Positions 17,287-30,527 of a stretch of DNA of 64,000 nucleotides are shown here, one piece after another (position 1 is the stretch's first letter; every line of letters starts with the position of its first letter). The DNA comes from Escherichia phage WPEC1. The stretch lies in sequence record PV659873.1; one strand, written 5' to 3'. The notes beneath the pieces were generated by a model. The model saw only the letters and a list, made by a program, of their open reading frames with translations. It was not told the DNA's origin and made no database searches. Made by a program: the position numbers and the translations under genes.

Positions 17287-17655
17287 ATGACAAATAATAT
17301 TCCGTTGAGCAGTGCAACATTGCTTCGCTTCTATAAAGCATGGATTGCCAACTATCCTGCAATGAATCGCACAACGAGTGGCTTATGTGGTTGTCTGGTA
17401 GATTATGTAGATGATTTTGTTGGTGAGACAACTAGAGAAGAAGATAGAAGATGGCGGGATAGTTTGTTAGACCGTTTGAAATATGAAATGAGGAAACAAT
17501 TTACATGTGCAGGGCTGGACTACAATCTTCCGTTCAATGCAGATTGCATGGATTACCTTTCAGAGTGTATAAACTTGGCGTGTCATACCAACACGTTACG
17601 TCTTCAATGGGTGAAAGACAGAATTGAAGATGCAAATAATGCTTGCATTGAATAA
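17287..17655 (+). CDS. hypothetical protein, paralog family A
   Basis: 122 aa; shares F-Y-x-x-W...GLC and C-terminal LxxxRxxWVKDR motifs with 5 other ORFs in window. Confidence 0.55.
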   Translation: MTNNIPLSSATLLRFYKAWIANYPAMNRTTSGLCGCLVDYVDDFVGETTREEDRRWRDSLLDRLKYEMRKQFTCAGLDYNLPFNADCMDYLSECINLACHTNTLRLQWVKDRIEDANNACIE

Positions 17656-17670
17656 AAATGTCTGTATAAT
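17643..17670 (+). promoter_or_regulatory. sigma70-like promoter
   Basis: TTGCAT, 16 nt spacer, TATAAT with upstream TG. Confidence 0.45.
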
Positions 17671-17704
17671 GGATGACATAACAGATAGCCAATGAGGAGA
17701 TGAA

Positions 17705-17926
17705 ATGAAGAATTTGAAAACTGTCACAATGTTCTTGACTGATCCTACACGTGTGCAAGCACTGGCTAAAGCCAGCCGTGTAGCTGTAGAATTCCAAAAC
17801 TTTAAGCCGTCCGTTGTGACAGGCAGTGAAACGTGTGTTATCGATTTCATTAACGAATACTTCCGAGGGAATCCGGTTGGTCGTTACTTCATTAAAAACT
17901 TGAAGGATGCGGAGCAGGTACAATGA
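17705..17926 (+). CDS. hypothetical protein
   Basis: 73 aa ORF, RBS GAGGAGA. Confidence 0.45.
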   Translation: MKNLKTVTMFLTDPTRVQALAKASRVAVEFQNFKPSVVTGSETCVIDFINEYFRGNPVGRYFIKNLKDAEQVQ

Positions 17927-18162
17927 TCCTTCCAGTAGATAATGAGATAGCTATGAATGTTCTGGATACAGAATACTTCTACAATCACTACTCTGAGACA
18001 GAGTGGATGAACACGCAAACTCTAAAAGAGAAGACGCAAGCTTTGATTAAGTGTGATCGCTACTTGCAACGTGCCGAGGAAGATAATATAACATTAGCAT
18101 CTCGCGCACGACGCATTTCTATTTTTAATAAAATGTTAGCATTATGGGGAGGTAGAAAATGA
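17923..18162 (+). CDS. hypothetical protein
   Basis: 79 aa ORF, ATGA overlap with upstream gene. Confidence 0.45.
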   Translation: MILPVDNEIAMNVLDTEYFYNHYSETEWMNTQTLKEKTQALIKCDRYLQRAEEDNITLASRARRISIFNKMLALWGGRK

Positions 18163-18608
18163 GACAACTATCTATACTGGAAGCACATGTGCAATGTGTT
18201 GCAGATTATGTCAAAGAACATTCAAGTTTGTTGGATGTAACCTGTGCAGTGCAAGATGATGTAGGTATTGTCTGTGTGCAACATATTCTATCTGAAACTT
18301 GTTACGAAGTATTCCGTGCTACCTTGTTTGGATGTGATCGTGTACATGTAAACTTTCTGGACTCCAATTATCGTTATGCTTTAGAAGATATTGATGACTA
18401 TCTTCCTTGCTCTCCAACAGGATATGTGATGATAGCAGGAAATGAAGTAACACCAAACAACACTGAACGGAAAGTTTTGTTATGGAAGAAAGCACGGCAA
18501 CTGCAAGTGCTGAATGAAATGAAAGAGGAGTTGGAGCAGGAACTGCTCAACGACTTCGATAAATCTCCAGAAGAGGCTTTAGCGTGGTTGCGTGAAGTAG
18601 AACAATAA
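18159..18608 (+). CDS. hypothetical protein
   Basis: 149 aa ORF, ATGA overlap with upstream gene. Confidence 0.5.
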   Translation: MRQLSILEAHVQCVADYVKEHSSLLDVTCAVQDDVGIVCVQHILSETCYEVFRATLFGCDRVHVNFLDSNYRYALEDIDDYLPCSPTGYVMIAGNEVTPNNTERKVLLWKKARQLQVLNEMKEELEQELLNDFDKSPEEALAWLREVEQ

Positions 18609-18630
18609 TTTAACATAAGAGGAGAAGATC

Positions 18631-19086
18631 ATGTTTAAAGTAGGGTTTACTTATAAATTCAAAAGCGTTGCTGACCAAGGAGATATGGCAACACATGACA
18701 AAGCAAATATTGCTGTTTGCCAAGCGATTGGAAACGAAGTTTTCAAAGTTATGAATACAGATGATAAGTATGGTCATGTTCTTGAGTTTTATATTAATGG
18801 TACCCTTTATACAGCAGGTGTTACCCCAGGGTTTAATTCATATACTTATTTGATTGATAACGAAGAATTTAAATATTTTGAAGAAGTAAAGGAGGAAACA
18901 ATGGGTAAAGCAGAACCACAATGGCATGTTGTGATCGTAGGATCAGAGTGTGTAGATGTTTGTTCTAGTTTTGAAAAAGCTTCTGAAGTCGCTACAAAAG
19001 CTAAGAAGGATTATCCGTCGAAGACGGTTGAGATTTACGCTCGTGTTGCAGTAGCAAACGCCACAATCACTATTGATAAGGAGTAA
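18631..19086 (+). CDS. hypothetical protein, tandem paralog family B (copy 1)
   Basis: 151 aa, starts MFKVG, RBS AGAGGAGA; similar length and N/C termini to next two ORFs. Confidence 0.5.
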   Translation: MFKVGFTYKFKSVADQGDMATHDKANIAVCQAIGNEVFKVMNTDDKYGHVLEFYINGTLYTAGVTPGFNSYTYLIDNEEFKYFEEVKEETMGKAEPQWHVVIVGSECVDVCSSFEKASEVATKAKKDYPSKTVEIYARVAVANATITIDKE

Positions 19087-19091
19087 AGCCA

Positions 19092-28483: not shown

Positions 28484-28906
28484 ATGAAACAAGAAAATGA
28501 ATCTGTAGATCACTTAATCATGCTGTCAGCCCTTTTTGCCGGATGGGACGTATTTTTTGAAAATTTGTTCAATTCTGCTACAGATGGTTCCGATTTTATG
28601 CGCCAATTTAAACGACGAACTGTTGAGGACTATACCTTCTATTCAGGTCTGATTGAAAAAGGTTACGAAGATACAAATACAACACTCACCATTAAAGTTT
28701 TAGATGTGATGTTTAGTGTTATAGATGCTATCGACGAAAGTCTTCCGATCCTAGACAATTGTAATACGAAAGTTTATGTTTACAAAATAGCTCGTGCTTA
28801 TGTGTCTGCAAACAGTTGTCTTCTTTCCACCCAGATTGCCGTGAACAATCTTGCCAACTTGTTTGATGAAGGAGAAACTTTTTATGACAATCGATTTGAA
28901 GTGTAA
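28484..28906 (+). CDS. hypothetical protein
   Basis: 140 aa ORF directly after recombinase gene. Confidence 0.45.
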   Translation: MKQENESVDHLIMLSALFAGWDVFFENLFNSATDGSDFMRQFKRRTVEDYTFYSGLIEKGYEDTNTTLTIKVLDVMFSVIDAIDESLPILDNCNTKVYVYKIARAYVSANSCLLSTQIAVNNLANLFDEGETFYDNRFEV

Positions 28907-29249
28907 GAGGATTCTTTTAGATTTCTATAATAATTGGTTAGAACACCTCCGTCTCTTTCCAAGAGAAAGTGGTTACGCTGATGTTGGCTTATGCCGAGGT
29001 CTGCGTATGTATATAAGTGATGAATTTCGGGCAGAGCATTCTCTAGCATATTCTGTTTATGGTATGCAATTAGCCAGTTTTGAAAACGCTGGCTTAGATA
29101 CAACTTTCCCATTTAACACAGCAAAATCTTTTGAGCAAGAGTGTAAGGAAAAACGTTGCATGTTTAATGAAAAACGTGTACAGTGGGTTAAGGATCGAGT
29201 TAAACAACTGGAACAAGAGTTGGATTTCTTCTATGATGAGGCAGAATAA
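28884..29249 (+). CDS. hypothetical protein, paralog family A
   Basis: ATG 28884 after GGAGAA; LDFYNNWLEH...GLCRGL and KRVQWVKDRV. Confidence 0.5.
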   Translation: MTIDLKCKRILLDFYNNWLEHLRLFPRESGYADVGLCRGLRMYISDEFRAEHSLAYSVYGMQLASFENAGLDTTFPFNTAKSFEQECKEKRCMFNEKRVQWVKDRVKQLEQELDFFYDEAE

Positions 29250-29521
29250 TGGATAGACAAACCTTAAAAACAATGGCAGATGCCACTAATTCCCCGTACT
29301 TTGAAAAAGTAAGTAAATTGGTAGCTCAAGCCGCAGAGGAAGGATATTATAACATAAACATCCACAACCCAAGTCTTATACTAGAAATGCCAAGTGATAA
29401 GAAGATACAAGAAAGTATCTGCGAAGGTATTGTTAGTTACTGGCGCGAGCGTGGGTGTGGTGCAAACATGGCTTTAGACAGTGCAAACATTGTAAGATAT
29501 ATAAATATTTCTTGGGGGTGA
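29249..29521 (+). CDS. hypothetical protein
   Basis: 90 aa ORF, TAATG overlap. Confidence 0.45.
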   Translation: MDRQTLKTMADATNSPYFEKVSKLVAQAAEEGYYNINIHNPSLILEMPSDKKIQESICEGIVSYWRERGCGANMALDSANIVRYINISWG

Positions 29522-29525
29522 TTTT

Positions 29526-30137
29526 ATGATTCAATGCACTCATATCCAAATTACTTGGAGAGATGAACTTTACCATTTGGGACAATTTACTGTAGGGGAA
29601 ACATACCCTATCATTAAACATAATCCTAACATCGCAAACTTTGACAGGATGGTTCTTGTTGAGGACGATCTAGGTCAAACTTATTCTTTAGATCTAAAAT
29701 ATCCGTTTTCTTACGGCTACGATTGGATCGTTACTTTTGAAGACGTGGAGGAAAATAAAACAATGAACGAAAAAAATTCTTGGTATTATCGTTGTGAACT
29801 GCCGCCAGTAGGTGAAAAGGTTATCTTTGTTCCTGATTTGGAAAGATATTCTTGGGACAGTTCTTATTCTGTTCCTAAAGAAGGCACCGAAGTTGAAGTT
29901 ATTGCACATCGCACAACTTCGCATGGTAACGATGTAGCAGTTGTTTTCTGGGATGATGAAGGCGCTGCTTGTGCAGGTGGCTTTGTTGCAGGTAATTTTG
30001 AACCCCTGCCAGATCCTTTGAAGGAGGCAATTTTAGGCGTAGCTTCTTTTGGACTCTCTTACACGTCTGCACAAGAGATCGTAGAAGGTATTTTAAACGG
30101 TACCGTTCCAAACGAAATTTTTAAACAGATTAAATAA
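29526..30137 (+). CDS. hypothetical protein
   Basis: 203 aa ORF. Confidence 0.5.
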   Translation: MIQCTHIQITWRDELYHLGQFTVGETYPIIKHNPNIANFDRMVLVEDDLGQTYSLDLKYPFSYGYDWIVTFEDVEENKTMNEKNSWYYRCELPPVGEKVIFVPDLERYSWDSSYSVPKEGTEVEVIAHRTTSHGNDVAVVFWDDEGAACAGGFVAGNFEPLPDPLKEAILGVASFGLSYTSAQEIVEGILNGTVPNEIFKQIK

Positions 30138-30143
30138 CAGTTG

Positions 30144-30170
30144 CACCCCGTTCTTCGGGGTGTTATTGTA
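30144..30170 (+). terminator. rho-independent terminator
   Basis: CACCCCG-ttctt-CGGGGTG followed by T-rich tract. Confidence 0.5.
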
Positions 30171-30188
30171 TACGTAAAGGAGGAGATA

Positions 30189-30527
30189 ATGTATTACACT
30201 GAAGACTACATACTGTATAACTTTTTTAAAGGCTGGTTGAAATGGGCGGAACAAGCTCCTGTCGGAGATTGTGTTTTTCCTTGGGATTCTCGTCAAGGTT
30301 TGTGTCGTTGTTTGGAAGATTGGCTTATAACCACAAACTACAACTCAGAAACTAAGAAATCTACATCAAATCGATTAAAAATGTTGTTTGAAGAAGATGG
30401 TTTAGATCCAATTTATCCTTTCGGTGAGGAAAGTTTCCACAATGGTCTTTTCCTTGGCACTCAACATTATGATAAAGATCGTGTAGATTGGGTAAAAGAA
30501 AAGGTAGCACAGTATGAATGGGGTTAA
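30189..30527 (+). CDS. hypothetical protein, paralog family A
   Basis: ATG 30189 after AGGAGGAGA; LYNFFKGWLKW...GLCRCL and DRVDWVKEKV. Confidence 0.5.
   Translation: MYYTEDYILYNFFKGWLKWAEQAPVGDCVFPWDSRQGLCRCLEDWLITTNYNSETKKSTSNRLKMLFEEDGLDPIYPFGEESFHNGLFLGTQHYDKDRVDWVKEKVAQYEWG

Follow-up and report, generated by a model that had tools for sequence, protein, structure and literature searches.

The presumed early region of Escherichia phage WPEC1 raises the question of why one phage carries six diverged copies of the same small gene and what their products might do. In a stretch of 64,000 nucleotides (nt) of this phage (sequence record PV659873.1; referred to here as the window), a preliminary description had pointed out six open reading frames (ORFs) whose products share short motifs. 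Our analysis showed that these ORFs are true, significantly related paralogs and the sole members of their family, called family A, in the window. By profile match, the six proteins are assigned to phrog_2510, a family that includes gp3 of coliphage N4. As to function, we tentatively prefer the reading that they are scaffold proteins, made early, which may bind host or defense factors through a variable face. A ligand-binding or catalytic role is the main rival of this reading.

All six ORFs were found on the plus strand. They are located at 17287..17655 (member 1, 122 amino acids, aa), 21961..22275 (member 2, 104 aa), 25182..25508 (member 3, 108 aa), 25947..26267 (member 4, 106 aa), 28884..29249 (member 5, 121 aa, divergent) and 30189..30527 (member 6, 112 aa, the most divergent copy). 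The products, 104-122 aa in length, are soluble and mildly acidic. Five of the coordinates agree with the preliminary description, but member 4, described there as 25941..26267, most likely starts at ATG 25947, GTG 25941 probably being 6 nt too early: ATG 25947 is preceded by an AAGGAG ribosome-binding site, and the homologues P0001-P0005 start with MSEEL. BLASTP gave significant matches for 15 of 15 pairs (E = 7e-41 to 5e-4) with identities of 23-51%, the closest paralog of member 4 being member 3 (51%). A hidden Markov model (HMM) built from the six copies and run against the window ORFs of at least 40 aa (n = 625, 619 of them outside the family) matched exactly these six, the next E value being 2.3. 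When each copy was omitted in turn, it was always recovered, with E values of 1.8e-20 (member 1), 1.4e-23 (member 2), 6.7e-31 (member 3), 3.6e-31 (member 4), 2e-17 (member 5) and 1.7e-16 (member 6), while the best non-member did not fall below 0.097. A broader family HMM from 127 sequences again yielded the six copies and no more. The proposed six-member family was thus borne out, and the shared motifs are statistically supported. Family A is the largest paralog family of the window, the only others being 18631/19092 and 20025/26322. The chance that the similarity is accidental or that the ORFs are non-coding is practically negligible. No point in favor of this explanation was found and it is refuted by the BLASTP and HMM statistics and by ratios of nonsynonymous to synonymous substitution (dN/dS) below 1, namely 0.22-0.41 against the orthologs of phage phiWec181 (0.41 for member 3). 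The confident predicted folds and about 1,900 homolog clusters, both described below, also speak against it. Hence, the family A genes are real and under purifying selection; their products are 96-100% identical to those of phage phAPEC8.

The motifs were counted in a MAFFT alignment (A1) of the six window copies, which contains 16 invariant columns including G-L-C-x-x-L, F72, G-L, P-F and R-x-x-W-V. G-L-C-x-x-L, P-F and R-x-x-W-V each occur in six of six copies, in agreement with the GLCxxL motif and the C-terminal block noted before. By contrast, the statement that most copies carry GAPxGxPF was slightly overstated, as the motif is complete in three of the six (members 2, 3 and 4), partial in member 6 and absent from members 1 and 5. 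Across 127 diverse family sequences, C35, P72, F73 and R95 are invariant, L7, F10, Y11, W17, G33, L34, F62, L67, N92, W98 and V99 are conserved in more than 90%, and E57, Q61, H90 and N92 in 84-93%. Positions 43-53, which correspond to the loop between helices 2 and 3, are unconserved, rich in indels and of low information content. Broad family alignments hold no conserved stretch of 7-10 columns. Within the orthogroup of member 1, entropy maxima lie at residues 41-60 and 91-100.

It is conceivable that Cys35, Arg95, E57, Q61, H90, N92 and the aromatic residues form a pocket for a nucleotide-type signal or a metabolite. The proteins would then be small-molecule sponges or mini-enzymes and the paralogs would cover different ligands. 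The four residues invariant in 127 of 127 sequences, the strong conservation of the four polar positions and an aromatic content of 11-19% fit this explanation, and the recurrent tandem-domain fusions would suit ligand sites at subunit interfaces, where the known sponges Acb2 and Tad1 have theirs. On the other hand, E57 and Q61 are both missing from members 5 and 6 among the six window copies; member 5 in addition lacks H90 and member 6 N92, which speaks against a catalytic or ligand site common to all copies. Moreover, S4, N74 and N92 occupy N-cap positions of helices and may be purely structural, the isoelectric points (pI) spread from 4 to 9.8 across the family, and neither Pfam, the PDB nor the fold comparison revealed similarity to a known sponge or enzyme; specifically, family A gave no Pfam, PDB-sequence or PDB-fold match to Acb2, Tad1 or Tad2. 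We therefore regard a sponge or enzyme as rather unlikely. Two more specific assignments were rejected. For a HEPN domain, the Rx6H pattern is not conserved across the family, and the combination of an R-x(4-6)-H at a helix start with HEPN fold matches was not found; for a zinc site, the CxxC and CH patterns are not conserved across the family.

Structure prediction was performed with AlphaFold2 for the most typical copy (member 3) and the most divergent one (member 6), each with an alignment of 38 sequences. Both models were confident, with a predicted local distance difference test score (pLDDT) of 94.4 and a predicted template modeling score (pTM) of 0.87 for member 3, and 93.4 and 0.88 for member 6. 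They revealed the same order of five helices and a short beta-hairpin in the loop between helices 1 and 2. Thus, family A is predicted to form a single compact five-helix domain. A fold search of the PDB detected no relative of this domain among solved structures. In the BFVD, 19 family members matched at E <= 1e-3 with template modeling scores (TM-scores) of 0.77-0.88, and the good matches were uncharacterized family members alone.

The remote-homology search led to a family but not to a characterized relative. All six copies match phrog_2510, which carries no functional annotation, over profile positions of about 4-113 with E values of 2e-25 to 4e-31 (2.2e-25, 8.9e-29 and 2.2e-26 for members 1, 2 and 5). 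No match was obtained in Pfam, NCBIfam or PDB sequences, either for the single proteins or for 73 diverse relatives, and the six copies and N4 gp3 matched none of the PADLOC profiles at E <= 0.1. A family profile search over 1.84 billion cluster representatives (50% identity) returned 1,909 representatives at E <= 1e-3, of which 989 reached E <= 1e-10; their length was mostly 95-125 aa. Two or three tandem domains were seen in 18 of the 150 best representatives. Longer family proteins contain no Pfam domain but only extra family domains, N-terminal transmembrane helices or modules joined by linkers. Representatives with N-terminal transmembrane helices are included in the set P0055, P0086 and P0175; one 441-aa protein of this set combines the domain with extra modules via repeated AAPAVQAE linkers and with a DnaJ-type CxxCxGxG zinc-finger motif. 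All recovered homologs are named 'hypothetical protein'.

By tblastn, the family was located at 623 places in 245 phage records, comprising Phapecoctavirus, Justusliebigvirus (phi92), Vequintavirus, N4-like Schitoviridae, T1-like Drexlerviridae, T7-like phages of Ralstonia, Burkholderia and Rhizobium, PhiW-14 and jumbo phages. Among model phages, only N4 possesses a member, gp3 (YP_950481; family HMM E about 1e-21); the family HMM found none in T1. Outside of phage records, a member was present in one of 72,556 plasmids, an SSU5-like phage-plasmid, and, among 185,579 species genomes searched with a single motif pattern, on one contig of 717 bp. About 20 of 5,426 complete Escherichia coli genomes carry a full-length version in lambdoid prophages. 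The family is hence almost exclusively phage-borne. In these prophages, the gene is located in a nin-like region, with the replication genes on one side and Q on the other, and the family domain continues into a fused C-terminal module (about 50 aa) common to ead/Ea22-like proteins of Shiga toxin (Stx) phages. Partial matches were seen in 738 E. coli genomes, most of which probably match the C-terminal module alone. One locus of the prophage version is L024 4968-5938 (IMG/VR UViG 2541047758_000013), where the downstream, overlapping gene shows a weak match to the Mom family (PF25680, 24 bits, below the cut-off).

In other phages, the position of the family is early, delayed-early or accessory, as in the N4 early region (gp2-gp8), in RSB1 and in lambdoid prophages. 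N4 and an N4-like contig share the gene order Gp1-Gp2-[member]-GP8-RNAPII (RNAPII, RNA polymerase II); Pfam models cover N4 Gp1, Gp2 and GP8, none covers gp3. The early genes of N4 are situated at the genome's left end and are injected first, Gp1, gp2 and gp15/16 being early products (PMC4496689), and the gp3 gene lies between the genes for gp1 and gp2 and those for gp15/16. A common 28-nt leader is found in N4 (L004) directly upstream of gp3 (1181-1208) and of gp8 (2565-2592), which suggests that both genes open early transcription or translation units. In the T7-like phage RSB1, the member is located upstream of a gp0.7-like kinase gene. From this consistently early or accessory position, we infer early expression. 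N4 gp3 resembles the window copies in HMM membership (E = 1e-21 to 1e-31), length, motifs and early-region position; the difference is that N4 and other small phages contain one copy, compared to six diverged ones here.

The N4 arrangement, in which the gp3 gene directly follows gp1 and gp2, whose products are RNAPII cofactors, and shares its leader with gp8, would also suit an accessory factor internal to the phage, e.g. a modulator of its own transcription, replication or genome entry, and so would the retention of the family across very different phages. This explanation is unlikely. The carriers use unrelated transcription and replication strategies (the virion RNA polymerase of N4, T7-like RNA polymerases, myoviruses depending on host RNA polymerase, lambdoid prophages), so that no common phage partner is evident. 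The copy number of one to nine, with none in T1, fits an accessory rather than a core role, and acidic proteins are unfavorable for DNA binding. The early position was weighed for a second alternative as well, namely that the proteins are general anti-restriction factors, i.e. DNA mimics like Ocr or ArdA, which shield the incoming DNA from restriction-modification (R-M) systems. Their small size, the pI of 4.5-5.3 of the window copies and the RSB1 member, whose position is analogous to that of T7 gene 0.3, agree with such a role. However, Vequintavirinae and phi92/phAPEC8-like relatives carry several copies and were nevertheless described as 'exceptionally susceptible' to R-M systems, without effective protection (PMC8594841). 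Since multi-copy carriers are reported to be R-M-sensitive, general anti-restriction is very improbable. Furthermore, no PDB fold match to Ocr or ArdA and no Pfam match to ArdA or KlcA was obtained, and the pI is not uniformly acidic in the family. An Ocr/ArdA-type DNA mimic was rejected accordingly, as the combination of a fold or Pfam match with a uniformly very acidic surface was not found.

The number of copies differs even between related phages. Six are present in the window, seven in phAPEC8, which has the additional tandem copy gp245 beside gp244, nine in phiWec181, three of them in tandem, and nine domains in eight ORFs in Citrobacter phage Tr1, including one two-domain fusion. Copy number thus appears, as judged by these arrangements, to vary through tandem duplication and fusion of two or three domains. 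The neighbor-joining tree is star-like and does not group the window paralogs apart from N4, T1-like and T7-like members. Recent duplications are confined to the pair of members 3 and 4 and to the tandem array at the member 1 locus, which comprises two to three copies in relatives. At the 3' end of the member 1 gene (17596-17655), the C-terminal tail WVKDRIEDANNACIE is unchanged even in homologs with no more than 45-50% identity in the body of the protein. This constancy, seen for the C-terminal 15 residues within the orthogroup, points to a recombination (mosaic) boundary inside the gene. Tr1 retains family A while only six of about 40 neighboring early genes keep homologs.

The preliminary description had pointed out that diverged multi-copy families of phage early regions are often host-takeover or anti-defense factors. 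Such a role is plausible here and agrees with circumstantial evidence, namely the early or accessory position in unrelated phage groups, the near-complete confinement to phages and the copy-number changes by tandem duplication and domain fusion. Taken together, the conserved core of hydrophobic and aromatic residues, the variable loop, the divergence of the paralogs, the changes in copy number and the fusions suggest a binding scaffold, which is the reading we tentatively prefer. According to it, the six proteins would be produced early during infection and would work through binding, not catalysis. The invariant core, made up of G-L-C where helix 2 begins, the A-G-L...P-F loop and R-x-x-W-V of helix 5, would hold the fold, while the indel-rich loop between helices 2 and 3 and helix 4 would constitute a variable face recognizing a host or host-defense factor. 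In large phages, duplication, divergence and domain fusion may have produced sets of six to nine variants that differ in specificity. Several observations weigh against this. Early expression in WPEC1 is deduced from gene position, and the literature contains no binding partner, phenotype or expression data for any member. The family does not diverge faster than the neighboring early genes, because the whole early block is hypervariable; together with gene-wide dN/dS values below 1, this leaves an arms race without a measured signature. In addition, the invariant cysteine and arginine and the well-conserved E57, Q61, H90 and N92 could mark a ligand or active site. No homology to any characterized anti-defense or takeover protein was detected in Pfam, NCBIfam, PADLOC, the PDB or the literature, no function was found in the literature for N4 gp3, the member accessions, phrog_2510 or the rV5/phAPEC8 paralogs, and the supplements of the accessory-gene screen by Silas et al. 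contain no family motif.

A more elaborate version of the scaffold reading assumes that the invariant end of the domain (the GLC, AGL..PF and HLN..R loops) docks a common partner and the variable face captures different host immune or takeover targets. The six to nine copies and the fusions would then represent a diversified panel of adaptors or inhibitors. This is distinctly doubtful. If it were true, it would define a new mechanistic class of anti-defense proteins common to N4-like, T7-like, T1-like and rV5/phi92/phAPEC8-like phages. Should the proteins be binders or anti-defense factors in any form, the family, with its about 1,900 clusters, would be among the most widespread uncharacterized counter-defense or takeover families in phages of Proteobacteria. 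N4 gp3 is a single-copy, genetically tractable representative, and coliphages of the therapeutic type (phAPEC8, phi92 and rV5 relatives) provide natural panels of six to nine members. As there is neither a solved relative nor a curated family model, thousands of 'hypothetical proteins' would gain an annotation at once from a structure and a first phenotype. Irrespective of function, the family is useful as a marker of early or accessory regions and is a clear example of copy-number evolution in phages.

The host-range genes of poxviruses form multigene families that expand and contract under host pressure. Family A is similar to them in being a diverged multi-copy family in which genes are arrayed in tandem, domains are fused and closely related phages differ in copy number. 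The comparison is no more than an analogy, without homology, and the rate of family A is no higher than that of its neighbors. With T7 Ocr, T4 AsiA, N4 gp8 and Atd1, the family shares small size, early-region location, restriction to phages and, in the window copies, acidity, but there is no sequence or fold relationship to any of them. Atd1, the anti-defense gene reported for Phapecoctavirus, encodes a MazG-like anti-TIR pyrophosphatase (preprint 10.1101/2022.06.09.495361). Identity with Atd1 was rejected, as the six proteins and 73 relatives showed neither a MazG nor any other Pfam match.

The individual copies differ in context. Member 1 is the ortholog of phAPEC8 gp244 (99% identical) and has a long insert between helices 2 and 3. 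It begins 4 nt after a junction, described below, and has lost its native ribosome-binding (Shine-Dalgarno) site and the upstream tandem paralog; in relatives, this copy comes after another family A member. Member 2 shows the canonical GAPxxxPF...GLC motif and an upstream AGGAGG ribosome-binding site. Several copies had been thought to lie at the 3' end of transcription units, directly followed by a promoter or terminator. This argument did not hold. Only member 4 fits, being followed on the plus strand by a hairpin with a T-run (26266-26281) that overlaps a strong promoter-like site at 26264..26292 (TTGACA-17-CATAAT with TG, 11 of 12 matches). Member 6 instead is the first gene 3' of the strongest intrinsic-terminator-like hairpin of the region (30143..30163, plus strand, 8 bp, six of them G-C), which lies directly upstream of it. 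In the whole region, 44 promoter-like sites were counted compared to 40.4 in shuffled sequence, and 12 terminator-like sites compared to 9.8. Thus, neither count exceeds that of shuffled sequence.

The window belongs to a Phapecoctavirus-type coliphage, whose proteins are 96-100% identical to those of phAPEC8. Its relatives are myoviruses of this type with genomes of about 150 kb (subfamily Stephanstirmvirinae), in which all orthologs are annotated as 'hypothetical protein'. Escherichia phages WPEC2, WPEC4 and WPEC6 match the segment 17283-31000 with 100% identity; for Mt1B1_P17, anhysbys and phAPEC8 relatives, the identity amounts to 97-98%. Upstream of member 1, the junction region 16744..17283 revealed a fold-back repeat architecture. 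An 80-nt arm (16744-16823) recurs twice, reverse-complemented, inside a tandem repeat of 2 x 158 nt (16973-17283). At 16824, 16972 and 17283 synteny breaks with every relative; phAPEC8 and anhysbys are affected, and so are even the 100%-identical WPEC records. The same architecture, in which a 2 x 158-nt repeat with two reverse complements comes after an arm of about 75-80 nt, was found at 3046-3432, and the pieces flanking both junctions derive from distant genome positions and orientations. The junctions are probably either assembly artifacts or the result of a real rearrangement, which in the case of the one before member 1 would be common to the WPEC records. The junction before member 1 would explain why six copies are present here and seven in phAPEC8.

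Family A is embedded in a block of small plus-strand ORFans (about 3.6-34 kb). A Pfam search with ten neighbors identified only a serine recombinase, a SprT-like protein and one sub-threshold DUF2782 match. The second paralog family of the window comprises 18631-19086, 19092-19547 and probably 19560-19997, with products of about 150 aa that all start with MFK(V/E)G. The pair 18631/19092 is related by BLASTP (E = 6e-14) and gave in Pfam only the weak DUF2782 match. The third family consists of 20025-20324, the C-terminal half of 26322-26876, and 29249-29521, whose products end with ...I(D/S)W. A linkage between family A and this third family was considered, as two genes of the latter directly follow family A members in the window, and was rejected, since it is not general in phiWec181 or Tr1. 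The serine recombinase gene (Resolvase, PF00239) is located at 27804-28475 inside the ORFan block and is called 'DNA invertase' in relatives. On the metagenomic contig L010, a similar serine recombinase gene is found downstream of a family member, at a distance of a few genes.

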